A stretch of DNA of 64,000 nt from Escherichia phage JSE, in sequence record EU863408, one strand, 5' to 3'. Under the pieces are notes generated by a model that was given only the letters and a program-made list of their open reading frames with translations, was not told the origin of the DNA and searched no databases. The position numbers and the translations under genes were made by a program. This document shows, in pieces, positions 4,708 to 56,306 of the stretch. Within the stretch, counting starts at the first letter, position 1, and each line of letters opens with the position of its first letter.

Positions 4708-5467
4708 CATTATTTGTTCAGGGTAGGTCGCTAATCTACCCCCGCCTTTCGGCTGCTACATGTCGCCATGCAGATCAGACTATATCTTCTATCTTTCGAT
4801 AGTCTACCATTTCGGATCGCTTGATCCTACGCCGCTACATTCATCACGGCTAGTCGTTAGGCATTTCATAGCGGAACTCATATTCATAAGTATTGGTTTT
4901 TCTACCATCAAGAATTGCAGATACATTTTTACGATGCAAGCCCAATGTTTCAGAAAGACTTCTCACGCTTTTAAATGTCTGCTCTTGTCCGGTTTCTTTA
5001 TGGATCGCAGTAACCTTATATGAACGACGTTTGAACTTATAGCACCCGTTTTCGTAACCTTCTTTCGTGTTTTCGCTGTTAGTCCCCCACTCAAGGTTAG
5101 ATGCATCGTTTATAGTTTTATCGTCGTTTTTATGTTTCACATATCGATAGCCGTTAGGATTCGGAATCCAACATTCAGCCACAATAACATGAACACGCAA
5201 ACATAAAGGTTTCTTGTCTCTCCTTACCCTTACTAATGTATATCCGGTATTGTTTTCTATCCAGGTACTCAACTGTTTACCTTTAGGAGAAAACACCCGT
5301 CCATCTTTCGATACCATATATTCGGTATCACGAATTTTTCTAAGTTCCATAATATATCCTCTTATACACATTGGCGTAAAGAGAATATGACCGCTATGTT
5401 TAGCACGGGATTGTCTTCTAGAGAGTTCCCCCGTTTAGGCAGATTTTAGATGAGCTGTTTAAAGTTT
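4708..5467 (-). mobile_element. Group I self-splicing intron (T4 td/nrdD-like core) in nrdD carrying an HNH endonuclease ORF
   Basis: 760 nt between NrdD halves; 5' segment AAUCUGCCUAAACGGGGGAACUCUCUAGAAGACAAUCCCGUGCUAAA and 3' segment with AGAUAUAGUCUG resemble T4 group I intron core; exon 1 ends in U, intron ends in G. Confidence 0.75.
4850..5350 (-). CDS. Intron-encoded HNH homing endonuclease (166 aa)
   Basis: HVIVAECWIPNPNGYRYVKHKNDDKTINDASNLEWGT HNH motif; ATG 5350 with AAGAGGA RBS; located inside intron. Confidence 0.8.
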   Translation of the reverse strand: MELRKIRDTEYMVSKDGRVFSPKGKQLSTWIENNTGYTLVRVRRDKKPLCLRVHVIVAECWIPNPNGYRYVKHKNDDKTINDASNLEWGTNSENTKEGYENGCYKFKRRSYKVTAIHKETGQEQTFKSVRSLSETLGLHRKNVSAILDGRKTNTYEYEFRYEMPND

Positions 5468-6337
5468 ACCCATCGGGCTAACCGGAACACTAGATCCAGT
5501 GATGCTACGGTTATTCTTCGCAGAGATATAATCAGGGTAAAGACGCTTACTAGAACATTCCAATGCAAGTTGCTTAATGTCGTAGTTCGGATCTTCCGGT
5601 TTAAGGTTTAATCCTTCTTCTAAGAACATCACCAGCTTAGGAAACACCGGAGTTATACCGTCTTTACCTAAACCTTTAGTTCGAACTTTCAGGATCGCTT
5701 TCTGAATCAGTTTTTCTTCCCAGCTAGTACCCATACCAAAGGTTAAAGTCACAAAAGGTGTTTGACCGTTGGTAGAGAACAAAGTGTTGATCTCATATTC
5801 CAACGCCTGATATCCGTCTAACGTTTCTTTTTCTGTTTTCTCTTGTGCATAGAGAGTATCAGCTTTGATTCCGTAGGTTTCGGCATCAGCAAGGTGTTTA
5901 TGATATGTTTTCTTAACATACGGCGCTAACACCTGGTCGATGTTTGCAATTGTGGTCCCGCCATATTGATGACTTGCCACCTGTGCGATAATTTGAGCGG
6001 TTACAGCACATGCAACACCGATCGATTTAGGACTTTCGATTTGTGCGCTACCCAATTTAAAACCATTCTCTAACATGTCTTTGAGATTAACAAGACAGCA
6101 GTTAGTAAACGGCATAGCTGGTGCATAATCCATATCATGATAATGAATATCACCGTCTACATGCGCTTTATAGATGTGCTCAGGTAACACGGTTTTAGCA
6201 ATATGTTTAGACACAGCGCCAGCAATCAGATCTCGACGTGTCGGGAATGTTCGCGCGTCTTTGTTCGCGTTCTCTTTGCTTACTTCGTTTTCTTTACCCG
6301 TTGCGATCTCTGTAATGTCTTTGATTAGTTTTTCCAT
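5468..6337 (-). CDS. nrdD: Anaerobic ribonucleoside-triphosphate reductase NrdD, exon 1 (N-terminal 290 aa)
   Basis: ATG 6337 with AGGTGA RBS; ends ...VPVSPMG; ORF-track stop 5459-5461 lies inside the intron. Confidence 0.8.
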
Positions 6338-6348
6338 TGTATCACCTA

Positions 6349-6371
6349 TGAAAAAGCGGGATTTCTCCCGC
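6349..6371 (-). terminator. Terminator-like hairpin (GCGGGA-GAAA-UCCCGC + UUUUUC) 12 nt upstream of the nrdD start codon
   Basis: Perfect 6 bp GC stem, U run overlaps nrdD RBS region. Confidence 0.5.
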
Positions 6372-6381
6372 TCGTTGATAG

Positions 6382-6876
6382 TTATTTTACCAGTTCTGCT
6401 AATTCTTTTTCTTTAGCTTCTAGTTCAGCTTTAAGCTGTTTAATCTCTTGTCGCTTCTTATTAGCGGCTTCCTGCTTACTATTTCGGATAACCTGATCTA
6501 GATACAACTCCCAATCCTGAATATTTTTGATAATGTATCCGTCAACATTAATTGGTCGGAGATTCAGTACAGCTTCCAGTTTAGTTGCAAAAACTTTAAT
6601 TGCTGGGGTGAAGTATTCATATTCGTTATCTTCAAACCAATAACCTAGACTTGCATTCTCAATACGAAGATGAAGTTTAAGATCAAGGTCTTTATCATCG
6701 GTATATAGGTCTTTTACACACCCCATAGAATTAACAACAACTTTAAAACGAATTTTATCTACACCACCAAAAACATCTTCAAGAATATCAGCAATTGAGC
6801 TATTAGCGCAAGATTGGTCGCTGAATGCGTCAAGGTTTTCTTTAGTTACAGTATACCAAACATCTTGTACCCACAT
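6382..6876 (-). CDS. Paralog family A protein (164 aa) with C-terminal coiled-coil
   Basis: ATG 6876 after promoter cassette; IRFKVVVNSMGCV and RPINVDGYIIKN modules. Confidence 0.5.
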   Translation of the reverse strand: MWVQDVWYTVTKENLDAFSDQSCANSSIADILEDVFGGVDKIRFKVVVNSMGCVKDLYTDDKDLDLKLHLRIENASLGYWFEDNEYEYFTPAIKVFATKLEAVLNLRPINVDGYIIKNIQDWELYLDQVIRNSKQEAANKKRQEIKQLKAELEAKEKELAELVK

Positions 6877-6906
6877 AATATAATCCTCTCGTTGTTAAGT
6901 GGGAGT

Positions 6907-6934
6907 ATTATAGCATACTCCCTTCGCATGTCAA
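6907..6934 (-). promoter_or_regulatory. Early promoter cassette TTGACA-16-TATAAT; -10 sits in loop of GGGAGTA/TACTCCC palindrome
   Basis: Minus-strand read; leader ...GAGAGGATTATATT-ATG. Confidence 0.6.
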
Positions 6935-8109
6935 GCACTAACTTTTTTCTTTACTGCTTTCACCTTCTGGCGAATTACTCGAATCTCTTCGATCTCTTTT
7001 TCAGTCTCTTTAACAATTTCTTTGCGATTCTGAATATCTGTATCGAGATTATCATCAAGTTTAGGCAGCATGTCAATCAAGAACTTTTTAAAGTCTTTCA
7101 GGTTTCGGATAACAGCACCTTCACCCATTACCGCCACACCAACACCATCCGGCAGATCACCAAACAGTTTAACCAGTTCAGACAGATGATCATGGTCTTC
7201 TAATGCTTCCTCCGGTTCAGATGGCAGTTCAACAAAGTTATAACGTTCATCATTGCTGATCAAGTGATACCAGCAAAGCCCGAAAGATTTCGGTGTATAT
7301 TCTACACCATCAATTTCAACCGCGTCAACACTTCCATAATCATCTACTTTAGTTACCTTAAATCCTTGTCCCAGCTTTTGAACAATTTCAACAACATGAC
7401 TTGATACAGTTTCAGCGGTAAACCAATATGGCAAATTATGCTGATTTGGCTTGTAGCGTTCACCTACTTTAAATCTCTGACCATCCGCTTGCATAGCATG
7501 AAATTGTTGTTTCGTGATTTCCGCGAAGTATTCAAATTCGCCACCATCAAACACACAAGCCCATTGATCACAAAAACGATCTGCCTTAACAGTTTCACCT
7601 TTCGCGGTGATCATGGTAGCTGATCCGTGCAATTCTTCTTCAACTAAAAAGCCATATTCGACAAAATCAACAAGTTTCATAGCTTCTTTGTGATCTGGAT
7701 CATGCTCTCCCCAGAATCGCTTAAATTCTTGCAAACCTTCTGGTGTAAACGAATAACATTTACCTTTTTCAAAGTAAGTCGGCATTGCATCCTCTTTCTT
7801 GTTCATCGCTTCGTATGCCTCTTTTGAGATGCGTTTAAAGTATTTACGCTCATCGTGCATAATCATAGTAGCCCAATAATAAACGATATCCTCAGCGGAA
7901 TAAACTACATCTCCAGCTTCAATAGTAATAACATGACCGTTGTCATCTTTTTCTAATACTTTAAAGCCCTTTTCGACGATTTCAGCAACCCGAATATGAC
8001 CACGGCGCGAAGCATCGGTCAGAATAATTGAATAGCGAGAAAAGTCTAGAAACTCATCTTTACCACCTTCACGGAATGCATAGTAATGACCTTCAAAGAA
8101 TTTAGCCAT
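6931..8109 (-). CDS. Paralog family A protein (392 aa) with duplicated GFKV...ERKYFKRI module
   Basis: ATG 8109; motifs EKGFKVLEKDDNGHV...ERKYFKRISK and GQGFKVTKVDDYGSV. Confidence 0.55.
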   Translation of the reverse strand: MAKFFEGHYYAFREGGKDEFLDFSRYSIILTDASRRGHIRVAEIVEKGFKVLEKDDNGHVITIEAGDVVYSAEDIVYYWATMIMHDERKYFKRISKEAYEAMNKKEDAMPTYFEKGKCYSFTPEGLQEFKRFWGEHDPDHKEAMKLVDFVEYGFLVEEELHGSATMITAKGETVKADRFCDQWACVFDGGEFEYFAEITKQQFHAMQADGQRFKVGERYKPNQHNLPYWFTAETVSSHVVEIVQKLGQGFKVTKVDDYGSVDAVEIDGVEYTPKSFGLCWYHLISNDERYNFVELPSEPEEALEDHDHLSELVKLFGDLPDGVGVAVMGEGAVIRNLKDFKKFLIDMLPKLDDNLDTDIQNRKEIVKETEKEIEEIRVIRQKVKAVKKKVSA

Positions 8110-8140
8110 AATATAATCCTCTCGTTGTTTAAATGGGAGT

Positions 8141-8169
8141 ATCTTACTACTCCCGTTTCATCATGTCAA
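8141..8169 (-). promoter_or_regulatory. Early promoter cassette TTGACA-17-TAAGAT within GGGAGTA/TACTCCC palindrome
   Basis: Minus-strand read. Confidence 0.6.
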
Positions 8170-8172
8170 GCG

Positions 8173-8733
8173 TTAAATGACTTTTTGGATCTCTTTCAGT
8201 TCAGCTACTTTATCGGCGCTGAATTTAGCGTAGGTATCATGTCGAATAATTTCACTTTCAAGAAAGGTTTCCAGCCGAGATCTATTTTCAATAAGGAACT
8301 CTTTCAGGTCTTCCGCGTTCTTGATAAAGATTTTATTGTCAGTAATGTCATCTTCAATCGCAAAGGAGATAGAGCGAACTTTACCAAACAAGTTAATCAG
8401 ATCTTCCAGCGATTCTTCTTTCTTAACTGGTTTCATTTCTTCAAACTGCTTTTTAGTGATGCGTTTAAAGTATTTGCGCTCGCTTGCATCAATCATGATT
8501 GACGCACCCTCATAATCATGAGTTTCTACCAAATACACTTTACCCATAACATTAACCGTAAGAACTTTAAAGCCCCTGTGAAGCACACCATACAGGAACT
8601 TGTTATGTTGTGGATAGCGTTTAACAAATTCCTCTGCGGACTCAGCATTACGGAAAGTGTAATAACGACCTCGTTCAAAAACAGCATCATTTGAAGACTT
8701 AGCTGGATACAATTTATACGTTTTCTGTACCAT
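8173..8733 (-). CDS. Paralog family A protein (186 aa)
   Basis: ATG 8733 with GAGGATT RBS; HRGFKVLTVNVMGKV...ERKYFKRITK module. Confidence 0.55.
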   Translation of the reverse strand: MVQKTYKLYPAKSSNDAVFERGRYYTFRNAESAEEFVKRYPQHNKFLYGVLHRGFKVLTVNVMGKVYLVETHDYEGASIMIDASERKYFKRITKKQFEEMKPVKKEESLEDLINLFGKVRSISFAIEDDITDNKIFIKNAEDLKEFLIENRSRLETFLESEIIRHDTYAKFSADKVAELKEIQKVI

Positions 8734-8747
8734 AATATAATCCTCTA

Positions 8748-9020
8748 TCATTTCACTAATTGAACAGCACGAAACAGAATGCGGTCACACGGAAGAAGCA
8801 TAAATTCCCAACGCGGATCAAAGTCTTTAGCGGTATATGTTTTCCCATCAACCGAGATTTCACTTACATAACCAATAGGTGACACTTTAAGAACAGTAAA
8901 CCCATTCTTGATGACTTCGTAGGTATCTTTCAATCCTTCGTAGTCATCCTCTAGGAAGTCTTTACGTGCTTGCTCAGATTTAAAAACATAGGCCACACCG
9001 GATTTAAACATCTTACGCAT
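8748..9020 (-). CDS. Paralog family A protein, short (90 aa, single beta module)
   Basis: ATG 9020 after GGAGAATCAAC leader; KNGFTVLKVSPIGYVSEISVDGKTY module; ORF-track start 9080 is a TTG inside the -35 box. Confidence 0.5.
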   Translation of the reverse strand: MRKMFKSGVAYVFKSEQARKDFLEDDYEGLKDTYEVIKNGFTVLKVSPIGYVSEISVDGKTYTAKDFDPRWEFMLLPCDRILFRAVQLVK

Positions 9021-9051
9021 TGTTGATTCTCCTTCTTGATTAGATGGGAGT

Positions 9052-9080
9052 ATTTTACTACTCCCATTTCTTATTGTCAA
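9052..9080 (-). promoter_or_regulatory. Early promoter cassette TTGACA-17-TAAAAT within GGGAGTA/TACTCCC palindrome
   Basis: Minus-strand read. Confidence 0.6.
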
Positions 9081-9083
9081 CTA

Positions 9084-9557
9084 CTATCTTAATCTTTGTA
9101 TAAATTGTTTCTTATACTTCTTCGTGATCTCTTCTCTTGTATCAGCGTCACAGTAATCGAAACCTTCTGCGTCCATAATAGCAACCATCTCCGCGCGTGT
9201 CAAGCGTGAAAATCGTTTTACTTTATCAACAGCATATTGAGGATGTAAATGATTGTTGGTGTAGTCTCCTTTGATGTAATTAACATAGTTTGTAGCCCAA
9301 ACAACGAAATCAGCACCTAAAGCACCAACACCAAACCGTTTAAAGTCTCCGGTCAACGATCCTTCTAGGCGGTTGCAACACGAATGAAGCAATCCCCTTA
9401 CACGGCCTTGCCCTTTCCCATCTAGATCGTGGTCGTGGTCAAGATGGTTTTTGCTCATATCCTCAAAAAGTGGCAATTGACAAAGGGGGCAAATACCCCC
9501 CTGTTTTTCGAATAGTTCTTGTTTGTACTCTTTAGCACTCTTAGCAGTCAGTAACAT
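9084..9557 (-). CDS. 49: Endonuclease VII (Holliday junction resolvase, 157 aa)
   Basis: HLDHDHDLDGKGQGRVRGLLHSCCN and C-terminal ...FSRLTRAEM match T4 gp49 as recalled; length identical to T4 endo VII; GGAGGGTGA RBS. Confidence 0.9.
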   Translation of the reverse strand: MLLTAKSAKEYKQELFEKQGGICPLCQLPLFEDMSKNHLDHDHDLDGKGQGRVRGLLHSCCNRLEGSLTGDFKRFGVGALGADFVVWATNYVNYIKGDYTNNHLHPQYAVDKVKRFSRLTRAEMVAIMDAEGFDYCDADTREEITKKYKKQFIQRLR

Positions 9558-9581
9558 AAATTCACCCTCCAAAGAAGGTAT

Positions 9582-9863
9582 TTAACCATGAATCTTGTTT
9601 TTGACTACAAAGGATCGGAACTCATCAAAGCCACCAATATAATCACCATCATAGAAAATCTGCGGCATGGTGGCAATAACTTCTACCCCTGCGCGATCCT
9701 GAATGTCGGCAATGATAGAATCAATCTTTACAGGGCGACCGTTTTCGTCCACACCATCATTGACAGGAATATAGATGTAAGGGATCTTACGCGATTCACA
9801 AAGGCGCTTTGCATTCTGGCAATACTTACAGTTGTAACCTTCAAAACCAAAAATTTCTACCAT
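9582..9863 (-). CDS. nrdC: Glutaredoxin/thioredoxin NrdC
   Basis: CKYCQNAKRL active site (T4 has CVYCDNAKRL) and MPQIFYDGDYIGGFDE; 93 aa; GAGGTA RBS. Confidence 0.85.
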   Translation of the reverse strand: MVEIFGFEGYNCKYCQNAKRLCESRKIPYIYIPVNDGVDENGRPVKIDSIIADIQDRAGVEVIATMPQIFYDGDYIGGFDEFRSFVVKNKIHG

Positions 9864-9871
9864 GTTGTACC

Positions 9872-11115: not shown

Positions 11116-11125
11116 TATATAATCC

Positions 11126-11919: not shown

Positions 11920-11933
11920 AAATTCACCTCACA

Positions 11934-12242: not shown

Positions 12243-12277
12243 AATATAATCCTCACATCGTTCATTTGATGCGGTCA

Positions 12278-12305: not shown

Positions 12306-12312
12306 CAGTTTT

Positions 12313-23281: not shown

Positions 23282-23812
23282 TTAGTATTTTACGTTACGT
23301 CGAACGCCTTTTCGAATCTGACAAATAGCAGACGGTGAAACATTATATTTTCTTGCAAGTTCTACACCCTTCATATGGGGAGAAGATAAAATCTCTTCCA
23401 CTTGGTCGTCGGTAAGTTTTGCGTTTCCGTGGTTCTCTCCCCAATTTTTGTTTAATCCTTCTTCCTTCGCATGAACAAGATTTCGGGTATCTGTCGTCCA
23501 TTCAAGATTATAAAGGTCATAGTTTTGTTTGTTTCCATCCTTATGATTAACTACACGGTAGTTATTTGGATTCGGAATAAACGCAACCGCCATAGCTTTA
23601 TGCATGTTCACGGTTTTTCTAAATCCATCCGGCTTATAACATACTGTAAATTTAGAATAACCAGTTTTACCATAAACACTAATATAATTTCCGGTCTCCG
23701 TATTTCTAACCCTACCATGAGAGCTAATCTCAAATTGAGTGTAGGGCAACAGCGCATCAATCACTTTCCATTCTTCGACAGGATGGTCATCACAATATCT
23801 TTTAATCATCAT
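23282..23812 (-). CDS. Free-standing HNH homing endonuclease with C-terminal HTH
   Basis: FIPNPNNYRVVNHKDGNKQNYDLYNLEWTT HNH motif; C-terminal LTDDQVEEIL...ARKYNVSPSAICQIRKG helix-turn-helix. Confidence 0.8.
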   Translation of the reverse strand: MMIKRYCDDHPVEEWKVIDALLPYTQFEISSHGRVRNTETGNYISVYGKTGYSKFTVCYKPDGFRKTVNMHKAMAVAFIPNPNNYRVVNHKDGNKQNYDLYNLEWTTDTRNLVHAKEEGLNKNWGENHGNAKLTDDQVEEILSSPHMKGVELARKYNVSPSAICQIRKGVRRNVKY

Positions 23813-23852: not shown

Positions 23853-23859
23853 TAAAAAT

Positions 23860-24276
23860 TTACATTGCTTCCGTAAAGGTGCGCGAAATAACGTCACGTT
23901 GTTGGTCTGGAGTCAGACTATTGAATCTTACGGCATATCCGCTAACGCGAATGGTTAGTTGCGGATACTTATCAGGATTAGCAACCGCATCGAGAAGAAG
24001 ATCGCGACTCATAACATTGATATTAGCGTGCTGACCACCTTCGACAACCGGAGCACCATTATCTACAATCACCGGACGGAAGCTAGTTGTGTGCAGTGCC
24101 AGAGAATCGACGTCTTCTGCGGTGATCACATGGTCTTCTGCGAAAGTTTTACTAACAATTACTTTAGCGCCGATCAGTGCTTTCGGTTCGGATACCAGAA
24201 TCATAGGCGCGAAGTGTCCACCAATAATAGTACCTTTATGCTCACCTTTCATGATTTGAATTGCTTTAAATTCCAT
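23860..24276 (-). CDS. grcA: Autonomous glycyl radical cofactor GrcA (YfiD-like)
   Basis: C-terminal GGQHANINV...[36 protein letters not shown] nearly matches E. coli GrcA as recalled (RVSGYAV glycyl-radical loop); AAGAGGTGA RBS. Confidence 0.9.
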
Positions 24277-24959: not shown

Positions 24960-25535
24960 TTATTTTGGATCTGGGAAATTCAATAGAGCATATTCTCCAT
25001 AAAATTTCCTAGCTGCATTATCATAAGCGATTGCAGCTTCGATTTCTGTGTCATATTGTCCAAGAACATGTCTTTGTAGGTTGACCATTATACTAGCTCT
25101 CCATTTCTTACGCAAATCCTTCCTGTTACACTTACTAACACCCTTATACACACTAGAAAACTTTTTAGACTTCTTCTTTCTATTATGTTGATTTTGCGCG
25201 TCGGTTGCCTCCCTAAGATTTGGAGGATTGTTATTAGCAGGATTACCGTCAATATGATCAATTAATCTAACTTGCGTCCCATGTTCTAGAAACCAAACAA
25301 CCCTATGCACGAATAGATGAACTCTAGGAAGACCGTCATCTCTACTATGCCAAAATCTAAGATGACCATCTTTATTTGTTCTGACTTTAACTAAATCGCC
25401 GTGTTTATATCTACTCCCTAATGGTCGTCCTTTGATAGCTTTACTATCGACTCTATAATATAAGATACCCTCTATATGAGCATATCTAAGTTTTATCTCG
25501 TTTTGTAGGGATTCATCCCAATATTTAAAAGCCAT
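24960..25535 (-). CDS. HNH endonuclease fused to AP2 DNA-binding domain
   Basis: HRVVWFLEHG...IDHIDGNPANNNPPNLREAT HNH motif and C-terminal YKGVSK...WRASI...YDNAARKFYGEYA AP2-like segment. Confidence 0.75.
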   Translation of the reverse strand: MAFKYWDESLQNEIKLRYAHIEGILYYRVDSKAIKGRPLGSRYKHGDLVKVRTNKDGHLRFWHSRDDGLPRVHLFVHRVVWFLEHGTQVRLIDHIDGNPANNNPPNLREATDAQNQHNRKKKSKKFSSVYKGVSKCNRKDLRKKWRASIMVNLQRHVLGQYDTEIEAAIAYDNAARKFYGEYALLNFPDPK

Positions 25536-25580
25536 TTTATAATCCTCACAAAGCCAGCGATTAAGCTGGCTTTATTTTAG

Positions 25581-25970
25581 TTATACCGGGTCTGGATATA
25601 CCTTTTTATCGAGTTCCATATGCGGTCCGTCTTTAAAAGTAACCCAATCAACACCGCAGATAACAGGAACACCCAATTCTCGACCAGCTTGTTTAAATGC
25701 ATCAGCGATCATACGGTAGTATTTCATGTTCCATGTATCCTTATCTTTCGGATACGCTACAACGTCAACCGCGAAACCGTGAAGATGACGAGATTTCATA
25801 GTCTTAGATTTACCTTCCGCAACATATTTCTTTTGCGTTTCTAGACTACGTACACCTTCCGTAATACCAAAATCGACCGGAGTCAGTTCTAACGCACGAT
25901 GAACGACTTTTACCAGGTCTGGATGCACACCAACAAGCCGATCTTTGCTTCTTTGAGATAATTTAAACAT
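25581..25970 (-). CDS. Endolysin, L-alanyl-D-glutamate peptidase (peptidase M15, T5-endolysin type)
   Basis: SRHLHGFAVD and DGPHMEL zinc-site motifs and N-terminal HRALELTPVDFGITEG resemble phage T5 endolysin as recalled; GGGGGTGA RBS. Confidence 0.85.
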   Translation of the reverse strand: MFKLSQRSKDRLVGVHPDLVKVVHRALELTPVDFGITEGVRSLETQKKYVAEGKSKTMKSRHLHGFAVDVVAYPKDKDTWNMKYYRMIADAFKQAGRELGVPVICGVDWVTFKDGPHMELDKKVYPDPV

Positions 25971-27588: not shown

Positions 27589-27610
27589 AATATAATCCTC
27601 ACATAGTTAA

Positions 27611-27805
27611 TCAATGGTCAATAATCTTGCACATTATAACAGAAAGAACAAAGACCGCAACCCACATATAGATCCCAGCAATCAATGCAATTTCAATATC
27701 ACAATATCCAAGATATACAACAGGAATAAAAACAAACATACAGACCAGCGCAAAGAAACTAGCAAAGACGCTAGAAAATCCGATAGCAGTATTAGTAATA
27801 TTCAT
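27611..27805 (-). CDS. Small membrane protein (64 aa)
   Basis: Hydrophobic ORF. Confidence 0.4.
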   Translation of the reverse strand: MNITNTAIGFSSVFASFFALVCMFVFIPVVYLGYCDIEIALIAGIYMWVAVFVLSVIMCKIIDH

Positions 27806-31402: not shown

Positions 31403-31867
31403 TTACAGTTTGGTCGTCCACTCCAGGTCTAGATCTTCGACATACTCATGAGATCGGACAATCTCTAAATCGAACTCTAGGTCAGTGCCAAATTTACGCG
31501 CACCAACATCATAAGAAAGCGTGATATGCGGTACATATTCAGGATAATCCCACGTCGCGCCTAAAGCAGTGCCGATATCGTGTCTGAATTGCATGTAGTC
31601 GCTTTCAAATGCCAACACAAGCGCATTAGTACCGGATTGAGTTTCAAACACTTTCAGATGGCATAGAGAGCCTAAAAACTTTTCACCCTCTTCTGGGATA
31701 AACGGAACATAGACACGAGAATATAAGATAGTGCTATGCAGTTTATCACGAGGAACGGCATTAGGCAGATCGTAGAACTCCTGCAATTTTTCAATGCGGT
31801 CTAGTGTATCCTCAGTGAATTTAACAGCCGCATATGTACCTTTAACGGATTCTCGAAACGGGGTCAT
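31403..31867 (-). CDS. acb1: 2H phosphoesterase, anti-CBASS protein Acb1 (T4 gene 57B position)
   Basis: Two H-x-T/S-x motifs (HSTIL, HITLS); 154 aa; immediately downstream of 57A as in T4. Confidence 0.75.
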   Translation of the reverse strand: MTPFRESVKGTYAAVKFTEDTLDRIEKLQEFYDLPNAVPRDKLHSTILYSRVYVPFIPEEGEKFLGSLCHLKVFETQSGTNALVLAFESDYMQFRHDIGTALGATWDYPEYVPHITLSYDVGARKFGTDLEFDLEIVRSHEYVEDLDLEWTTKL

Positions 31868-31869
31868 AA

Positions 31870-32130
31870 TCAAGCCTCCGTGATCAGTTCTACTTCCTCT
31901 TCTGCGTCTTCCGCTGCTTCGTCTTTAGGGAGAAGTGCTTTCACTTCTTCGACAATAGCATCAAGGGAAACAGTCCCGTTTTCGTCTGGCTGAATACCCA
32001 GAATGCGTACCAGTTCCATCAATACACGCTCACGATCTTTCAGTTGGCCTTCTAAGAATGCGGCCTTTTCTTGAGTGTCAAACAGACGTACTTTCAGGAC
32101 ATTAATCATTTGTTCATGCTGATTGGACAT
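31870..32130 (-). CDS. 57A: Tail fiber assembly chaperone gp57A
   Basis: 86 aa acidic coiled-coil protein at the T4 57A position; AGGAGA RBS. Confidence 0.65.
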   Translation of the reverse strand: MSNQHEQMINVLKVRLFDTQEKAAFLEGQLKDRERVLMELVRILGIQPDENGTVSLDAIVEEVKALLPKDEAAEDAEEEVELITEA

Positions 32131-33900: not shown

Positions 33901-35043
33901 TTAACTATTGATCATATCAATGACGTTTTGTAGCTCTGATATGGATAGCGTTTCTGTATATCCATCTGGCATATCTTCTTTACTAACATAGAAACCTTTA
34001 TACTTTTTCTTTATTGCACATTCCATAGAAAGAGCATCATCACCGTTATCGTATTTTTTATAAAATGTCAACTCATGACGAAATATAGATTTTGAAGATT
34101 GGTTTTGTATTCTTTTTATTAATCTGTTGTTGGTTATACCAAATTTTATAGCAACCGCAACATCTTCTTTGTATAAAGTTTGTACATAAATGTATGCAGG
34201 TTTATTCCTCTTAAATCCATGATTGCTACACATAGGGCAACCGCTATTTTTTGATACGTAGTCTCCTAAGTTTGGCGTAAATTCATGTCCGCTACTACAA
34301 CGCATTACCAATTTTGTTTTTAGCATTCCTCTATACTCACCGCCAACAAAATCAACAAATGTATCACCTTTATCAATCGCCTTATCTGTTATTTCCTTTA
34401 CTACTTGCTCAGTTGACTTCTTGTTTTTACCTGAACATAGTTTACATCTAGATCCATTAACTAAAAACGAGTGACCGGATGCAGTATATTCATGTCCATT
34501 AGGGCATTTAACTAAGATATTTCTTTCATAAAAATCTTTATAATCAGACACATAGCCAATGACTTCGTGGTCTTTTTGGTTATTCCTCATCTCTGTTAGC
34601 AACTCTTCGCTATTCCAGCGTTTACCCTTAACGCAGAGACAACCATGACCTTGATAAAGATATATAAATTTCTTAGTAAAGTTTTTGTTGCAATCAGGAC
34701 AATGCATTAGTAATTCTGTCATTTGACCTGTATATCCTTTAGGAATATCGATCAATGTGTATTTTCCGCATATTGTCTTTAATGCATCATCTATTCTTTC
34801 TTTGGTCCAGCGTAAGCGACCAGTGCATTCATGACATTTTACACCCAGTCTAAGAGTATCTAAACTAAATATAGTTGACGTATGTCCTTTATCACATTTT
34901 AACTTAAATCTAGTATCCTTTGCGTTGGTGTATTCTCCGACTAGACCATACCATTCATAACAACATGGGATATGTTCTTTTACCTTCTCTAGATATACAC
35001 CGAACGGTCTAGGAACTGAATTGGGTTTTCTTTCTTTAGTCAT
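33901..35043 (-). CDS. Putative endonuclease: four tandem zinc-ribbon repeats plus C-terminal GIY-YIG-like (T5orf172-type) domain
   Basis: Repeated C-x2-C...G-H...C-x2-C units; C-terminal KPAYIYVQTLYKEDVAVAIKFGITNNRLIKRI; inserted between genes 2 and 3. Confidence 0.5.
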   Translation of the reverse strand: MTKERKPNSVPRPFGVYLEKVKEHIPCCYEWYGLVGEYTNAKDTRFKLKCDKGHTSTIFSLDTLRLGVKCHECTGRLRWTKERIDDALKTICGKYTLIDIPKGYTGQMTELLMHCPDCNKNFTKKFIYLYQGHGCLCVKGKRWNSEELLTEMRNNQKDHEVIGYVSDYKDFYERNILVKCPNGHEYTASGHSFLVNGSRCKLCSGKNKKSTEQVVKEITDKAIDKGDTFVDFVGGEYRGMLKTKLVMRCSSGHEFTPNLGDYVSKNSGCPMCSNHGFKRNKPAYIYVQTLYKEDVAVAIKFGITNNRLIKRIQNQSSKSIFRHELTFYKKYDNGDDALSMECAIKKKYKGFYVSKEDMPDGYTETLSISELQNVIDMINS

Positions 35044-35099
35044 ATTTTTATATCCTGTAAATTAAAGCGCCGTCACCAGCGGCGCTATTTTTATAATCA

Positions 35100-35922
35100 T
35101 TAAAACAATTTCCACACCTTACGAGCATCATATTTCTTGTCTTTGCTCATAAACTGGTAGGTCGGAAGATACACAACCGTGCTCCAATCTTTTGGTGCGA
35201 TCTCAATCAGTTTTGTTTGGATGTGTCCAGGCAAATATGCTTTGATCATGTGGTCTGCGCCTCTCATACCTTTAACATCACTCCATTTAATTTTTAAACG
35301 AGTTTTATTACTAAGAGTAGGTGTACTCGCGTATTGTCGCAACAACGCTTCTAAGAACTGCTGGCGAGCTTTAGGTGGCGCATAGTGCAAGTTCAAACCT
35401 AGCATAATCTCGTTTCCCGCTTTAGATGTACCAAATCCTAGACAGATAATCAAGGGGTATCGGTCAAAGAATGGCAAAGAATCCCGATATTTTGGGTTAT
35501 ACGCATAAGTATAGATCCGTCCCACTTGTGGTTTTACTACCTGATGACCTTTTACACCATCCTTGATGGTCTTCATAAACCACTCCTGTGATTTTTCTTT
35601 AGGACGACTCTTTGATACAGCACGCATAGACGCACGAAAATCATTAATCATCATCATTGCGCGTTGCTGCTTATTGAGACCCTTTGCACCTTTCCCTTTT
35701 AGTTTTTCAACTTCTATTGCTGTTTTAATTTCGCTGGCATAACGAGACATACTTTTAGTGAAAGTCGCATAGGCTATTCCCTTAGAATCTGCAAATGCTT
35801 TAGCTGTCATGCCTTTGGCTTTTGCTTTCGCAAATTCTACACCCAATTCGACCCACTGTTTAGACTTTCGTTTTTGGGGTAGACGGCTTTTCGTCTTCTG
35901 TGATTATTTCAAATACGCTCAT
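35100..35922 (-). CDS. 2: DNA end-protector protein gp2, with apparent +1 frame discontinuity near 35871..35879
   Basis: RBS-supported ATG at 35922 (AGAGGATAATATT) opens a 20-codon frame that ends at 35860; long basic ORF continues in +1 frame from 35903; corrected length ~273 aa equals T4 gp2. Confidence 0.6.
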
Positions 35923-49924: not shown

Positions 49925-49925
49925 T

Positions 49926-50570
49926 ATGATTTCTAAAACACGTTCTAAAGCAAGCGTATTTTCTAGCGACGCAGCATTCATTTCATACGATCCGGGGTCT
50001 AAAGACCCCATTATTGGTGACATTCGCCCAATTGGTGGATTAAACGTAGACCAATCTCGCAAAGGTTCTTTTATTAACAACGTACAATCAGCCATTGATG
50101 ATTTGTATAGCATTTCTATGCTTAATGTCGGTGATGTATTGGTAACTACAAATTCAACTCCACCGGAAGCGGCGGGACAAATAGAAACTCTTTCTTTCAC
50201 TGGAACGGTAACAAATAAACACGATCCAGCCGCGAAAAAAGTTGTGATTGAAGTTTTGGGTTATCCATTTGTTGTTAATGTTGGAACATCGAATGTTGCA
50301 TTATGCGAAATGGTCACAACAAAATTTACTGAATTGAAAGACAAAAGCATCCTGTTCTCTAAAGTTCAGAGGAAAGGCACTGGCAACGATCAAATAGAGA
50401 TTCAGTATATTGATTCAAACGCACACGAAGCAACGGTCGTAGAAAAATATGGTATTAGCGTTCGTGGGGAAATAAATTCCCCTGCTCGTTATGGTTATGG
50501 TGCATGGTCCAGATTGGGAACGGAAGAAAAATTTGATTCAACACTATTTTATTTTAAGCGTATTGCGTAA
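49926..50570 (+). CDS. 11: Baseplate wedge/short tail fiber attachment protein gp11
   Basis: 214 aa; synteny and size (T4 gp11 219 aa). Confidence 0.8.
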   Translation: MISKTRSKASVFSSDAAFISYDPGSKDPIIGDIRPIGGLNVDQSRKGSFINNVQSAIDDLYSISMLNVGDVLVTTNSTPPEAAGQIETLSFTGTVTNKHDPAAKKVVIEVLGYPFVVNVGTSNVALCEMVTTKFTELKDKSILFSKVQRKGTGNDQIEIQYIDSNAHEATVVEKYGISVRGEINSPARYGYGAWSRLGTEEKFDSTLFYFKRIA

Positions 50571-50581
50571 GGTGTAAAATT

Positions 50582-51985
50582 ATGAATAACACTATTAATC
50601 ACGTAAAAGACGATGCACAGTATGTTAAGTTTGACCCTACCGGAAATTGGCCTAGCAATATAAAAAACGTACAAGCGGCATTAGCCGCTATTCAGGGATT
50701 TGCTATTGCAGGTCTTCCAACGGCAACCGAAGAAACAGCGGGTATTGCTGAAATTGCTACTCAACAAGAAGTAGATGATGGGTTGGATGGAACTAAAATT
50801 GTTACCCCCAAAACATTGGCTGTTAAGCTGTCAAGACCGGACGCAACAAAACTTGTCAAAGGGATCACTCGCTATGCTAATAACGATGAAGCTATGGGCG
50901 ATACTCCAAATATTGCAATTGGTCCTGATACATTAACCCATGTATTCGAGAATAAGAAAGCAACGGAAACCGTACAGGGTACAATTAAAATCTGTTCTAT
51001 GGATGCGGCAAAAATCGGTAGTGATGACACTATGGCGGTCACGCCTAAAAAGATGCACGCTGCTATTGCTCAGATTGTTCCTGGGTTGATTCCAGAACAA
51101 AACACGGCGACCGAGTCCCGTGAGGGTTTAGTTCGACTGGCGACAAGCCAACAAACGCTTGCTGGTACTATCAGAGAAGGATTTGCCGTTAGCCCATATG
51201 CATTTTCCAACGCAAGAGCCAATGAAAATCAGGCGGGTACTGTTAAAATTGCGTCATCCCAACAAATGATTGACGGTAATGACAACACAGTAGTAGTATC
51301 AGCACAAAAATTTGCGAACACTAAAGCAACCACTGGACAATTCGGTGTTGTTAAGCTAACAGATAACCCAGGATCAGGCGAGGCAAACACAGCACTGTCG
51401 GCAAACGCTCGTGTATTGCCTCTAAGTGGTGGTGTCGTTACTGGTGATGTGTATCGTCATAGTGGAGGCGACGGAAACCAGTTTATCATTAAAAATGAAC
51501 TGGATGGTCTTTGTATGCCTATTGGTGGCATCATTCTTACAGCATTTAACAGTTTCGACCACGCACAATTCAAAATCTGCAACGGTCAATGGTTAAATAA
51601 ACACCAATATCCAGTATTATTTTCACGAATCGGTTTCACTTACGGCGGAGATGGCGGAGACAACTTTGCTCTACCCGATATGCGAGGGCTTGTTGCTAGA
51701 GGATGCGACCACGGTCGAGGACTAGACCCAGGTCGTGGATTTGGTACTTATCAAGACGACACCATGCAACATATGACAGGTAACTTCCCTGTAGCCAACC
51801 GTTGGCGAGGTTGGACTGGTGGTGTATTTGCCATCACAGGCGGTCAATGGAGCACGAACTATAAAAACGGTGGTGGTGATGATTGGGGTAGTATTGTTAA
51901 CTTTGACAGCGCAAGACAGGTTAGAACGTCTGGCGAAACTCGCGTTAAAAGCCTTGCATTAAACTACATGATAAGGGTACAATAA
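50582..51985 (+). CDS. 12: Short tail fiber protein gp12
   Basis: 467 aa; N-terminal alanine-rich repeats, C-terminal His-containing head region; synteny. Confidence 0.8.
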   Translation: MNNTINHVKDDAQYVKFDPTGNWPSNIKNVQAALAAIQGFAIAGLPTATEETAGIAEIATQQEVDDGLDGTKIVTPKTLAVKLSRPDATKLVKGITRYANNDEAMGDTPNIAIGPDTLTHVFENKKATETVQGTIKICSMDAAKIGSDDTMAVTPKKMHAAIAQIVPGLIPEQNTATESREGLVRLATSQQTLAGTIREGFAVSPYAFSNARANENQAGTVKIASSQQMIDGNDNTVVVSAQKFANTKATTGQFGVVKLTDNPGSGEANTALSANARVLPLSGGVVTGDVYRHSGGDGNQFIIKNELDGLCMPIGGIILTAFNSFDHAQFKICNGQWLNKHQYPVLFSRIGFTYGGDGGDNFALPDMRGLVARGCDHGRGLDPGRGFGTYQDDTMQHMTGNFPVANRWRGWTGGVFAITGGQWSTNYKNGGGDDWGSIVNFDSARQVRTSGETRVKSLALNYMIRVQ

Positions 51986-53754
51986 TGATCGAACAGTTAA
52001 ACATTCGAAAGATCCCTAACGTCGATGGTGTCCCTGGAGAGGGACAGCATTCTATTAGCTGGATTAAAAATGGTGAATGTCTAAGCGCAGCAACCACAGA
52101 AACAGGACACGAGGGGACGCTTAACCGCGCCCCTTATGCGATTCAAGAAAATATTGTTCGTCTGGATGAAAATTCTAAGACAACGGTAACAAAAGTTAAC
52201 GAAGTTGTTACAGCAGTTAATGATATTAAAACTACTTTAGGCGCGGTTGCTGATGGTAGTATTATTGATATTGTCAATCAAACTATTGCAAAGGTTGATT
52301 CTGTAGAAGAAAATTTAGGAGAAACTTCAAGGATATTACAAACCACAGTAGATGAACTGGCAGAGACAGGAAAGAAAATTGGTGTTCGTCCGGCAGCAGA
52401 TCCGAGTACACGAACAATATATGATGATATTTCTTTCATCAAACAAGAATTGGGCGCTTTCCCTAACTTCAATATCAACGGTTCTCCAGATCCGGGTAGT
52501 TCCGGTTCCGGTATCAAATATCGAGTTATCCAGAATACGGAAGCATTAAACAACCACGGTCAGCGAATCCGCCAACTAGAAAACGACTGGCAAGATTCTG
52601 ACGTTGGAGAGCTAACAAAACAAGTTAACAAAATGCGAAGCGAGCTAGGCGATACATCACTAGCAACACAGGACAATGTTTATCTTCGTCTTCGCACAAA
52701 TACTCGCAATATCGCTAGTATATCAAACGAAGTTCAGGAAGTAAAGAAAGCGATTCTATTTGAATCAATTCCTGATATCGGGACTAAAGTAACTAAGCTA
52801 CAATCTGATTATACACAGCTTAATGATGAAGTCAACGGCGTTGACGCTGGTATCCGTCCTCGTTTAACTCTTCTGGAAAATAATATTGGCAATCCTCAAG
52901 CCGCTGGAAGTATTGATTATCGATTGACTAATCAAGAACGGGAATTTGTAGATCTTAAATCTGTTGTCGGTGTTAGTGGTGCTGATGGTCTACGTGGTGA
53001 GGTTGCACGAATCTCTAACACAGTTGGTACTGATAGTGAGCGTCATACTATCGCAGGTCGTCTAAAAATTGTCGAAAACACACAGGGACGACTAGAAGCT
53101 AGCGTACAGGATATCGAGCAAATGATCGGCGATCGAGATTCCGGTCTAACCGCCGGGGTTATTAAGCTGTCAAGCGACATGTACGGCAATCCAGAAGGAA
53201 GCACGCAGCTTGAACAAGATGGGATCGTGAAAACTGTTAAGGAATTGAGCACATCAAATGCAAGCAAGGTAACAGACGTTCCTGATGATGGTTTCCATTA
53301 TCTACGTAAGCACGGGGAATGGGTTCAGGTCGCATGGGCGGCTGGTGCATTTAAAAACACCGCTCAGATTGATATTACTCTCGACGGACAAGATCAATAC
53401 AAAGGAATCCCGCTAAACGATATGACCGAAGAAGTTCCTGCGCGTGGAATGGTTAAGAGCGAATCTCTTGTTACGGTTAACGACAAAGGCTTATTCCGTT
53501 GTGATTTCCGTTGTTCTGTAAATGCGGCACATAACGCTACTTTCGTAGTCGGTATTGCTAAAAATGGTCTGATTGTACATGAGGTACGAAATGGTCATTA
53601 TGGACCTGATGATTTAATTAGCTATTCTACCAGTGCTTTCCTAAATATTGAAAAGGGCGACCGGATCGATATTCGCATTAAGGGCGTATCCGAAGAAGCA
53701 TTAGCGCAACAGCTACAAATTAAAGAGTTCCTCTTTGGAATTTCTCCGGTATAA
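51985..53754 (+). CDS. wac: Fibritin (whisker) Wac with internal foldon-like motif and extra C-terminal domain
   Basis: Long coiled-coil; DDGFHYLRKHGEWVQV (53284..53331) resembles T4 foldon DGQAYVRKDGEWVLL; ~140 aa follow the foldon. Confidence 0.75.
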   Translation: MIEQLNIRKIPNVDGVPGEGQHSISWIKNGECLSAATTETGHEGTLNRAPYAIQENIVRLDENSKTTVTKVNEVVTAVNDIKTTLGAVADGSIIDIVNQTIAKVDSVEENLGETSRILQTTVDELAETGKKIGVRPAADPSTRTIYDDISFIKQELGAFPNFNINGSPDPGSSGSGIKYRVIQNTEALNNHGQRIRQLENDWQDSDVGELTKQVNKMRSELGDTSLATQDNVYLRLRTNTRNIASISNEVQEVKKAILFESIPDIGTKVTKLQSDYTQLNDEVNGVDAGIRPRLTLLENNIGNPQAAGSIDYRLTNQEREFVDLKSVVGVSGADGLRGEVARISNTVGTDSERHTIAGRLKIVENTQGRLEASVQDIEQMIGDRDSGLTAGVIKLSSDMYGNPEGSTQLEQDGIVKTVKELSTSNASKVTDVPDDGFHYLRKHGEWVQVAWAAGAFKNTAQIDITLDGQDQYKGIPLNDMTEEVPARGMVKSESLVTVNDKGLFRCDFRCSVNAAHNATFVVGIAKNGLIVHEVRNGHYGPDDLISYSTSAFLNIEKGDRIDIRIKGVSEEALAQQLQIKEFLFGISPV

Positions 53755-53762
53755 GAAATTAA

Positions 53763-53785
53763 AGGGGCGTTAAGCCCCTTTTTCG
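53763..53785 (+). terminator. Terminator after wac (AGGGGC-GUUAA-GCCCCU + UUUUU)
   Basis: Perfect 6 bp stem and U run. Confidence 0.7.
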
Positions 53786-53800
53786 TTTATAGGTGATATT

Positions 53801-54733
53801 ATGTCAGGATATGTAACCAATAACCCAAGAGAATTAAAAGACGCTATTCTGCGTCGTTTAGGCGCACCAGTAATTAACGTAGAAGTAACAGAAGACCAGA
53901 TTTACGATTGTATTCAGAGAGCATTAGAACTCTATGGGGAATATCATTTCGATGGTGTGAATAAAGGATATAAAGTATTTCGTGTTAGTGCAGAGCAAGC
54001 GCAACACGGGGTATTTGATTTAAGCGATTCTGGAGTATTCGCAGTAACTAAAATAATTCGAACAAACGTAGGTAGCGCGGCTACGATGGATGGTACTGCC
54101 GTTTATCCGTGGTTTACTGACTTTCTGTTGGGTTTAGCGGGTGTAAATGGCGGTTTAGGATCTGGCTGTAGTAAATTTTATGGACCAAATGCAATGGGCG
54201 GTGATCTAGGATATTTCGAACAGCTTATGAGCTATCGAGCCACTATGCAAAATATGCTTAATCCGCTGCCAGATTATTGGTATAATAGCGCAAACGGACA
54301 ACTTAAGATAACAGGAAACTTCCGAGAAGGTGATCTCATTGTTGTTGAATTATATGTTAAAAGTTATGTTGATGTACCTGATATGATCGGCGCGGTTGCT
54401 GGTTATGCTCATGCGGGAGGATGTTCTACCGCTGGCGGGATTAGCGCCGTTTATGATAACCCAACTGCTGGTTTAAGCGGGATTGTTGCTGGCATGGGAC
54501 CGATCCGTGATAACAAGCAGGGCGCATATAATAACCGTTGGGTTAAAGACTGCGCGACTGCGTTTACTCGTGAGCTATGGGGGCAGATCTTAGCTAAACA
54601 TCAAGGGTTGCAATTACCAGGTGGTGTCACTGTTGATGGTGTCAGAATCATCGAAGAAGCACGCGCGGATATTGAGAAATTGCGACAAGAACTACTTGAC
54701 TTAGATCCTCCGTTCGGCATCCTCATGATTTGA
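53801..54733 (+). CDS. 13: Neck protein gp13
   Basis: 310 aa; synteny and size (T4 gp13 309 aa). Confidence 0.8.
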
Positions 54734-54769
54734 TTTATTGGGGGAGTATTCCCCCATTTGGAGTAACAT

Positions 54770-55510
54770 ATGTTTAACAACACTCTTTTTGCTCGCCTTG
54801 AATCGCAAAAGGATTATGAGAATACACGACAAACCGAGATTCTCAATCCTTACGTAAATTTCAACCGTCATACAAACACCCAGACGTTAGCCGACGTTAT
54901 GGTCGCCGAAGCTATTCAGATGCGAGGTGTAGAATTATATTACATCCCTCGTGAATTTGTCAAACCAGATATGATCTTTGGTGAGGATGTTCAAAGCAAA
55001 TTTACTAAAGCATGGAAATTTGCTGCGTATATAAACTCTTTCGACGGGTATGAAGGTGCAGGAAACTTTTTTCAATCTATGGGTTATACGGCAAACGACG
55101 AATTAACGTTTACGGTGAATCCTAACCTATTCAAGCATCAAGTAGATGATCAAGAGCCAAAATCAGGTGACTTGATTTATATTCCAATGAGTAATGATCT
55201 CTTTGAAATTAATTACGTCGAGCCATATCAGCCGTTTTTTCAGGCTGGCAAAAATGCCATGCGTAAAATTATTGCAGAGAAATTTGTGTATAGCGGTGAG
55301 GAATTGCGACCAGAATTACAACGCAATGAGGGAATTAATGTTGATGAGTTTGCGGATCTGGATCTTGCACCGATCACTAATCTGGACGGGTTAACAGATA
55401 TCAACTTAGATCAGTACAAAGAAGATAAGCAATTCAGAAGCGAAGGACAAGATTTTATTGATCCGTTTGATCCTATTAATGGCAAGGGTTCACCTTTCTC
55501 CGATTTTTGA
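54770..55510 (+). CDS. 14: Neck protein gp14
   Basis: 246 aa; synteny and size. Confidence 0.8.
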
Positions 55511-55550
55511 TAAATACTTGTATTGATATAATATAAGGATCTAATGACTT

Positions 55551-56306
55551 ATGAAAAACTATTATCTATACGAAATAAAGAACAATATAAATGGTAAGAT
55601 ATATGTTGGCATTCGTGGGTATGATGGTGACATAAGTCAAGATCCTTATATGGGTAGTGGATTGACTCTTAAGAGGTCTATTAAAAAGAACGGGATAGAA
55701 AACTTCACAAAAACAATTCTCAAAACGTTTGACTCATGGAAAGAGGCAAGGAAAGCAGAAAGAGAAATAGTTACAGAGGAATTTGTAAAAAGAGAAGATA
55801 CCTATAATGTTTCGGTTGGTGGACAAGGTGGAAATACTCACGCTGGGATGAGCGAAGAACGAAGAAAACTTGCAAGCGAAAGACACGCAGAAGCAAACCG
55901 AAATAGAGTATGGAAGCAAGAATCTAGAGATAAGGTTAGCGCAAGATTCAAAGGTCATAAGCTATCACAGAAGCAGATAGACGCGCTAAAGAAGGCAAAC
56001 ACAGGAAGAAAGTTCACAGAAGAACACAAGTTCAAAATAGGTAAAACGTGGCGAGGAAAGAAACGACCAGATATAGGAGAGAAGGTTGCGGCAAAATTAA
56101 CAGGGAGAAAACTACCCCCAGAACATGTGGCAGCAATAACGCAAAATACACCGAGAGGAAAACAACACTTTAGGGCAAAAAGATTCTTCATCGACGATAT
56201 GGAATTTTATATTTTGAGTGATGCAGCTAAAATGTTTGGTATAAGTTATAAAACGGTTAAAGCTAGACTTCTCTCAGATAAGTTTCCTACATGGAGATAT
56301 GAATAA
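55551..56306 (+). CDS. Free-standing GIY-YIG homing endonuclease (Seg-like) inserted between genes 14 and 15
   Basis: N-terminal YYLYEIKNNINGKIYVGIRG GIY-YIG motif; basic repeat region; C-terminal HTH; stop overlaps gene 15 start (TAAATG). Confidence 0.85.
   Translation: MKNYYLYEIKNNINGKIYVGIRGYDGDISQDPYMGSGLTLKRSIKKNGIENFTKTILKTFDSWKEARKAEREIVTEEFVKREDTYNVSVGGQGGNTHAGMSEERRKLASERHAEANRNRVWKQESRDKVSARFKGHKLSQKQIDALKKANTGRKFTEEHKFKIGKTWRGKKRPDIGEKVAAKLTGRKLPPEHVAAITQNTPRGKQHFRAKRFFIDDMEFYILSDAAKMFGISYKTVKARLLSDKFPTWRYE

Follow-up and report, generated by a model that had tools for sequence, protein, structure and literature searches.

Here we describe five homing endonuclease genes (HEGs) of Escherichia phage JSE, found in a 64,000-nucleotide (nt) stretch of its genome (record EU863408) that we call the window throughout. 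The window belongs to a Krischvirus—an RB49-like T4-type coliphage—and is ~96% identical to RB49; very probably, this phage acquired five independent and apparently intact HEG cassettes by the established phage homing mechanism. The cassettes are present in some members of the genus and absent from others, their boundaries are exact, recoded tracts in neighbouring genes are linked to them, their catalytic motifs are intact, and the core of the intron that houses one of them shows covariation. A first-pass annotation, made from the sequence alone, had named five HEG-like open reading frames (ORFs); all five are present, each matching homing-endonuclease family profiles, and they are numbered here HEG1 to HEG5 in order along the window. 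They are ordinary, recently acquired selfish DNA of four known families, and pose no challenge to HEG biology.

Cassettes and empty sites in Krischvirus

A megablast search with the first 25 kb of the window finds 48 phage records, all Krischvirus, that cover at least 80% of this part at ~94-97% identity; none is identical. Gene order is also RB49-like, running through nrdD, dam, gene 38, tk, regB, nrdC.11, vs.6, the endolysin gene, 57A/B, genes 1, 3, 2, 4 and 53, and then genes 5 through 20. Whole-window blastn against RB49 leaves, over the 64 kb, just six stretches of more than 40 bp that are specific to the window, and five of these are the HEG cassettes, with lengths of 760, 525, 644, 1206 and 803 bp for HEG1 to HEG5 (3.9 kb in sum); the sixth, 197 bp at 27605-27801, stands in place of ~396 bp of RB49 in the ORF110-112 region. 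HEG cassettes therefore make up nearly all of the gene-content difference from RB49 in these 64 kb, each with a recoded end of an essential or conserved neighbour, and the window is a clean natural example of HEGs shaping T4-type phage genomes.

The synteny check for empty target sites that was proposed with the first-pass annotation gives a clear result—all five positions are cleanly empty in RB49. Among ~57 Krischvirus records (an approximate count that includes some GenBank/RefSeq duplicates of one genome), carriers number about 1, 3, 12, 3 and 7 for HEG1 to HEG5, and the five cassettes occur together in 0 of ~57. The nearest combinations are found in phiS, which has the intron, a variant of HEG2 and HEG3, and in several two-element sets. 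Where the HEG alone was compared, namely for HEG2 (Whisky, 011D4) and HEG3, the DNA is 99.3-100% identical among carriers, on a surrounding backbone of 94-97%; since the HEGs are closer among carriers than the backbone is, a recent spread is indicated. The annotation had likewise taken several of the elements for recent invasions, and the carrier counts bear this out, as none of the five is conserved in all relatives. The loci can serve as five presence/absence markers for typing Krischvirus isolates, as in phage therapy collections, and for tracing recombination in co-infections.

The 1-3-2-4 and 13-14-15 gene modules are insertion hot spots, in which different isolates (Phi1, phiS, Makalu_002, MIZ4, KFS-EC) have different HEGs. 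In the first module, phiS has a 177-amino-acid (aa) endonuclease between gene 3 and ORF130, and in Makalu_002 an HNH gene separates gene 2 from gene 4. The second module offers a further slot between genes 13 and 14, filled in MIZ4 and KFS-EC, and by segC in Phi1. Altogether the hot-spot slots are gene 3/ORF130, ORF130/gene 2, gene 2/gene 4, 13/14 and 14/15.

In the homing mechanism as we would apply it here, each HEG product would, during a mixed infection, cut or nick a related phage's genome, in the allele that lacks the HEG and close to the insertion site. Recombinational repair with the HEG-carrying genome as template would follow, and would copy the HEG along with a short neighbouring stretch (co-conversion, also called marker exclusion); as the copied stretch is recoded, the new carrier would no longer be a target. 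HEG1 would ride in a sunY-type intron at the catalytic-cysteine codon of nrdD, with RNA splicing keeping NrdD intact. HEG2, HEG3 and HEG4, lying directly downstream of vs.6, the endolysin gene and gene 2, would each bring a substitute 3' end for that gene, and HEG5, between genes 14 and 15, would bring a substitute 5' end for gene 15. The endonuclease activities, target sites, self-splicing, direction of transfer and donor identity in this scheme are those predicted from sequence.

Free-standing cassettes and the recoded ends of their neighbours

In a sliding-window comparison, identity to RB49 falls sharply on one side of each free-standing cassette. Such one-sided tracts are what would be expected from break repair with a divergent donor, and they would remove the enzyme's target from the carrier.

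HEG2 (23282..23812, minus strand) lies between vs.6 and nrdC.11 and encodes a predicted free-standing HNH endonuclease, with NUMOD4 and HNH_3 domains and a C-terminal helix-turn-helix-like tail; it matches phrog_59 at 1e-36 and is 35% identical to HEG1 over the nuclease half. The cassette (23282-23806) stands in place of 16 bp of RB49. Its carriers are Whisky and 011D4 (99.6%), and phiS has an allele there that is 77.7% identical. The linked recoded tract (23857..23972, minus strand) is the 3' end of vs.6—the last ~35 codons, covering the RVSGYAV motif—and is 68-78% identical to RB49, versus 95-100% further off (sliding window). This tract is identical in three HEG2 carriers, and differs in RB49 and in G2248, which has the empty site. 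Relative to RB49, the last 40 codons of vs.6 hold 27 nt changes but just 6 aa changes, with RVSGYAV unchanged; the probable target of HEG2 spans the RVSGYAV-encoding stretch. The gene itself (23860-24276) is a GrcA/YfiD-like autonomous glycyl-radical cofactor gene and, with HEG1 in nrdD and HEG2 beside vs.6, genes of glycyl-radical proteins are the sites of two of the five HEGs.

HEG3 (24960..25535, minus strand) is a predicted HNH-AP2 endonuclease gene; its product matches HNH_3 at 40.2 bits, above the cut-off of 24.8, and phrog_99 at 1e-43, and the AP2 match, at 25.2 bits, is below the Pfam cut-off of 33.3. In a Pfam scan of the 95 window ORFs, HNH_3 is found in just HEG1, HEG2 and HEG3, among the best 25 of 64 matched families, and the H..N..N residues are visible in all three. 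The HEG3 cassette (24976-25619) stands in place of 23 bp of RB49; the HEG3 ORF finishes on 16 nt, stop codon included, that in RB49 form the 3' end of the endolysin gene. In the window, that gene has a recoded, HEG3-linked 3' end of ~80 nt (25576..25655, minus strand), which is 60-72% identical to RB49, versus 98-100% upstream (sliding window); the last 30 codons contain 31 nt and 12 aa changes, and the first 99 codons just 6 nt changes. HEG3 carriers, 12 records that are 99.3-100% identical, align through the recoded end and non-carriers do not. The target of HEG3 is probably this 3' end of the endolysin gene.

HEG4 (33901..35043, minus strand), between genes 3 and 2, encodes a predicted T5orf172-family endonuclease with N-terminal CapR/DUF4379 zinc-finger repeats and a candidate GIY-YIG-like T5orf172 domain at the C-terminus. 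The CapR (46.6 bits) and DUF4379 (33.9 bits) matches are above the Pfam cut-offs, and phrog_681 'endonuclease' is matched at 2.5e-80. A search of a large protein database gives 44 homologues, mostly on phage-sized contigs; in the 38 that were aligned, Y286, KFGxTN (300-305), R311, E341 and GYTET (361-365) are invariant, and the paired cysteines that repeat upstream of the nuclease domain are conserved. An AlphaFold model of the whole protein has a pLDDT of 85.5 and a pTM of 0.41—low pTM with high pLDDT may be explained by separately folding modules with flexible linkers between them. For the C-terminal 106 residues on their own, the model reaches a pLDDT of 94, with a beta-beta-alpha-beta-alpha topology. 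Foldseek with the whole, multi-domain model (pTM 0.41) returns only noise, and a sequence search of the PDB with HEG4 returns no match.

The HEG4 cassette (33904-35109) stands in place of 7 bp of RB49, and its ORF uses the stop codon of RB49 gene 2. In the carriers G37-3, AV108 and PTE-Eco09, the whole 3.6-kb region, HEG and flanks together, is 99.1-99.6% identical; genomes with the empty site match the flanks at ~93%. Adjoining HEG4 is a divergent tract of ~500 nt (35084..35600, minus strand), the 3' two-thirds of gene 2 (DNA end protector), which is 50-88% identical to RB49, and beyond 35604 identity is 98-100% (sliding window). Phi1 and ECD7 have a homologue at the same site, ORF130.1, that is 28% identical to HEG4; with such an allele in the HEG4 slot, it appears that divergent alleles of one family compete for it. 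As a separate observation, gene 2 (35100-35921, minus strand) has one extra A at ~35877 relative to RB49 and to the 99.6%-identical G37-3, which shifts the frame after about codon 17 and leaves as longest ORF one of 248 aa from a TTG at 35846; the extra base may be an error of sequencing or assembly, or gene 2 may truly be truncated at its N-terminus.

HEG5 (55551..56306, plus strand), between genes 14 and 15, encodes a predicted Seg-like GIY-YIG endonuclease with a NUMOD3 and an I-TevI-type C-terminal DNA-binding domain. The I-TevI_DNA-bd match (31.7 bits) is above its cut-off of 27, and phrog_314 'homing endonuclease' is matched at 1e-46; NUMOD3 (18 bits, cut-off 20.4) and TIGR01453 (3.7e-10, 40.2 bits, cut-off 56) are below theirs. 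NCBIfam gives no match for four of the five HEG proteins. The motifs YLY..(x10)..YVG, EREIV and YNVSVGG can be read in the HEG5 sequence. The cassette (55519-56321) stands in place of 33 bp of RB49 and is carried by seven records (FL20, TB34, SAP, G2494, MIZ4, MIZ5 and AV108), with a protein 100% identical to the FL20 homologue. At its downstream end, a 'TAAATG overlap' with gene 15 had been noted; the junction is indeed TAA-ATG (56304-56309), with the stop and start codons abutting rather than overlapping. The HEG5-linked recoded tract covers codons 2-6 of gene 15 (56310..56324, plus strand), which read MFSHFY for MFGWHY; the recoding is found in the window, FL20 and MIZ4 (3/3 carriers), and in none of Whisky, RB49 and KFS-EC, all with empty sites. 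A patch of gene 14 (55020-55139) that is 65-85% identical to RB49 was considered as a co-conversion tract or target of HEG5 and ruled out; it is unique to the window, and the carriers FL20 and MIZ4 are RB49-like there.

The T4 late-promoter motif TATAAATA adjoins none of the five HEGs, and its total count is no higher than chance; the cassettes, which have stem-loops on their upstream side, therefore appear to be promoterless. Several T4 seg/mob genes are likewise promoterless cassettes that are read through from their neighbours (PMC2988022).

Three further observations concern the rest of the window. Identity to RB49 is ~91% in 1-4707 and 35110-55518, versus ~96-98% in the remaining window; the lower-identity regions are mosaic divergence upstream of nrdD and in baseplate and tail-fibre genes. 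The Pfam scan also finds an Acb1 anti-CBASS homologue (E=1.5e-51), which we take to be the 57B homologue near 31403-31873, and a TnsA-like endonuclease N-terminal domain (E=4e-21), a match that is unmapped to any ORF and that presumably belongs to gene 4.

A group I intron with an endonuclease gene in nrdD

The HEG1 cassette is a group I intron (IA2, with a T4 sunY-like core) in nrdD, at 4708..5467 on the minus strand. The insertion is exact at 760 bp relative to RB49, and separates exon 1 (5468..6337, minus strand, 290 codons) from exon 2 (3715..4707, minus strand). In-silico removal of the 760 bp yields a 620-aa NrdD with the junction PVSPMG/CRSFLGV, so that the intron falls between a Gly and a Cys codon. 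We take this cysteine to be the catalytic one (Cys290 in T4 NrdD), in which case the intron directly precedes one of the most conserved codons of nrdD. Read along the coding strand, the last nucleotide of the 5' exon is U (5468) and that of the intron is G (4708), the boundaries of a group I intron; on our reading of the alignment, AUGGGU at the exon end could base-pair with GCUCAU close to the intron start, with U opposite G at the splice site. Without its ORF, the core shows a close alignment to the T4 sunY intron and to nrdD introns of Phapecoctavirus and Felixounavirus, and RNAalifold, on these four introns only, predicts 56 pairs, of which 21 show compensatory changes. We read the nrdD element as a group I intron of the sunY type, with self-splicing predicted from these features.

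HEG1 itself (4850..5350, minus strand) lies in a peripheral loop of the intron and encodes a predicted I-HmuI-like HNH endonuclease of 166 aa. Its ATG start stands behind an AAGAGG ribosome-binding site, and the longest ORF extends to 5371. The I-HmuI_NUMOD-like match (32.3 bits) is above the Pfam cut-off, phrog_59 is matched at 9e-38, and residues 8-163 align with I-HmuI (PDB 1u3e) over its full length at E=4e-9. In the translation, the motif HKNDDK..N..NLEW..N is intact.

The intron is absent from the ~57 Krischvirus records, where the nrdD region is 1941 bp and not 2701 bp, with phiS as sole exception; its linear record starts inside the intron, and the part that it holds is 95.8% identical. 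Homologous introns with HNH ORFs split nrdD in Phapecoctavirus (nieznany, phi92-like) and Felixounavirus (Mushroom and many Felix O1-like phages), and split nrdD genes of phages have already been catalogued (PMC3653736). The insertion point in the aligned nrdD genes of the window, nieznany and Mushroom is identical, ATGGGT-intron-TGTAGA. The first 12 nt of exon 2 read TGTAGAAGTTTC in the window versus TGTCGTAGCTTC in RB49, with 3 differences, all synonymous, and the window version is identical to the exon of Phapecoctavirus nieznany. Moreover, 8 of the 19 mismatches between exon 2 and RB49 (aligned region ~1 kb) fall within the first 102 nt. We infer from this distribution that the start of exon 2 is a co-conversion footprint from a heterologous donor.

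The GCUCAU guide is common to the window intron (5449-5467) and T4 sunY, and the 5' exons end in AUGGGU here and AUGAGU in T4. Two nrdD sites with one guide are compatible with movement of the ribozyme by reverse splicing, although this is speculation.

Taken together, it is quite possible, if short of probable, that the sunY-type intron and the I-HmuI-like HEG inside it travel between phage families. The element would home to the nrdD catalytic-cysteine codon in three lineages of coliphages and Salmonella phages that are unrelated to one another (Straboviridae Krischvirus, Stephanstirmvirinae Phapecoctavirus and Ounavirinae Felixounavirus). It would have entered this phage recently from a Phapecoctavirus-like donor, leaving the 12-nt exon footprint, and the occurrence of its core and guide at another nrdD site in T4 would fit site-hopping by reverse splicing. 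If the four free-standing cassettes are counted too, HEGs would then be the chief source of gene-content change and local mosaicism in the genus. The nrdD intron, which this phage shares with two unrelated phage subfamilies, is a ready-made case for testing whether introns home from one phage family to another.

Alternatives to homing and comparison with known systems

Several observations weigh against the account given so far. A number of domain matches fall short of their cut-offs: HNH_3 just misses its cut-off of 24.8 bits in HEG1 (22.0) and in HEG2 (23.6, where NUMOD4 is also just below), T5orf172 in HEG4 reaches 17.3 bits (cut-off 20), and SegE_GIY-YIG in HEG5 reaches 20.1 (cut-off 25). 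The PHROG matches are strong, and catalytic-type residues can be read in all five sequences. For the C-terminal domain of HEG4, Foldseek against the PDB places the GIY-YIG nucleases Slx1 (TM 0.56-0.59) and HIGLE at or near the top, with non-significant E-values (0.6-2.6). At the gathering threshold, Rfam has no match in the whole window, which may be explained by the ORF splitting the intron core; with an E-value threshold, RF00028 matches the 3' core of the intron partially, at 27.4 bits and E=1e-4 (gathering score 50). Since the gene 14 patch is not common to HEG5 carriers, not every mosaic patch near a cassette is HEG-caused. Lastly, stem-loop or terminator motifs bracket the cassettes of HEG2, HEG3 and HEG4, and recombination at flanking stem-loops without cleavage could also move cassettes.

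If this last process were the main one, the cassettes would have moved by homologous or illegitimate recombination at the promoter/stem-loop cassettes (PeSLs) found beside variable genes of RB49-like phages, with the endonucleases as passengers; this is the main alternative, and we consider it unlikely. It would fit the stem-loops or terminators beside three of the HEGs and the non-HEG replacement at 27605-27801, and many of the insertions, deletions and replacements that distinguish RB49 and phi1 have been attributed to PeSLs (Arbiol et al., PMC2839356). However, all five large insertions encode endonucleases (5/5), an odd coincidence for an endonuclease-independent mechanism; the linked tracts are one-sided and recode the adjacent gene end, as break repair near a target predicts; and the intron is inserted within coding sequence, without such flanking motifs.

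Another improbable reading is that the HEGs homed in the past and are now relics, either inactive or domesticated as regulators (like the PLE CapR protein) or exclusion factors. Defective HEGs can persist, as the annotated I-TevIII of T4 shows, and in other systems domesticated CapR-type domains act as repressors (PMC8096241, PMC10448857). On the other side are full-length ORFs with intact catalytic-type residues, and carrier copies that are 99.3-100% identical on a more divergent backbone, which favours recent spread over long decay.

It is highly improbable that the nrdD interruption is a free-standing HEG that splits nrdD into two separately translated polypeptides, with no splicing—as mobE splits nrdA in Aeromonas phage Aeh1, and as the two nrdD ORFs annotated in Phapecoctavirus and Felixounavirus records and the lack of an Rfam match at the gathering threshold might suggest—given a break that parts the catalytic Cys codon from the Gly codon before it, U and G at the boundaries as in group I introns, and a sunY-like core with 21 compensatory pairs across four introns and an RF00028 match at E=1e-4.

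With homing of five intact cassettes as the preferred explanation, T4 is the natural standard of comparison. The first-pass annotation had called the HEG load unusually high; this holds within the genus, as RB49 has no HEG in the interval matching the window, but not relative to T4, which has 15 HEGs in its 169 kb, or 5.7 per 64 kb, a density that five per 64 kb merely equals. T4 is itself an outlier, and most T4-like genomes have few HEGs (Edgell et al., PMC2988022); a novel HNH-type HEG, ORF040, is among the unique genes of RB49, and segC among those of phi1 (Arbiol et al., PMC2839356). As for position, the annotation had placed several of the HEGs at sites unoccupied in T4, with the 14/15 and 2/3 junctions as examples. 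The T4 annotation indeed has no HEG at either the 3/2 or the 14/15 junction; the claim does not extend to HEG2, which holds the relative position of T4 mobD, directly upstream of nrdC.11. Orthology of HEG2 and MobD was considered and rejected, as BLASTP finds no similarity between the two despite the shared slot. None of the T4 HEGs is orthologous, at the same site, to any of the five described here. The T4 seg/mob genes (SegF, SegG, MobE, MobD) nevertheless resemble the free-standing cassettes in being intergenic, apparently promoterless, and set between conserved genes, and their enzymes cause localized co-conversion of neighbouring markers (PMC2988022).

The intron invites a closer comparison. 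T4 is annotated with I-TevII in nrdD and I-TevIII in nrdB, and its nrdD (sunY) intron is, like that of the window, an IA2 intron in the same gene, mobile with a HEG, with the GCUCAU guide and long near-identical stretches in the ribozyme core. The T4 site, however, is AYE/YEVNTLF, and the SPMG/CRSF site used here lies ~110 codons downstream of it; the GIY-YIG enzyme I-TevII of T4 is encoded downstream of the core, whereas the I-HmuI-like HNH gene of the window occupies another loop. Different in site, ORF position and enzyme, the two appear to be the same ribozyme family differently combined. The Phapecoctavirus and Felixounavirus nrdD introns share the site, a homologous core and an HNH ORF with the window, at ~70-78% DNA identity over the aligned parts; they are found in phages of other subfamilies, whereas in Krischvirus the intron is rare, present besides the window only in phiS. 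I-HmuI, the nicking enzyme of Bacillus phage SPO1 (1u3e), is like HEG1 intron-encoded, with an HNH and a C-terminal NUMOD-like DNA-binding domain; its target gene is the DNA polymerase gene of SPO1, as opposed to nrdD, the predicted target gene of HEG1.

Relatives of the other families are known as well. HNH-AP2 enzymes of phages and cyanobacteria share with HEG3 an HNH_3 domain and an AP2-type DNA-binding domain, the latter scoring below the cut-off in HEG3. T5orf172 HEGs of ICP1, T5-like and other phages have CapR/DUF723/DUF4379 zinc-finger repeats followed by a nuclease domain, and T4 has no HEG of this family (Barth et al. 2023, PMC10448857). HEG4 shares with them the beads-on-a-string architecture and conserved GIY-YIG-like residues; it is, however, found in a T4-type phage.

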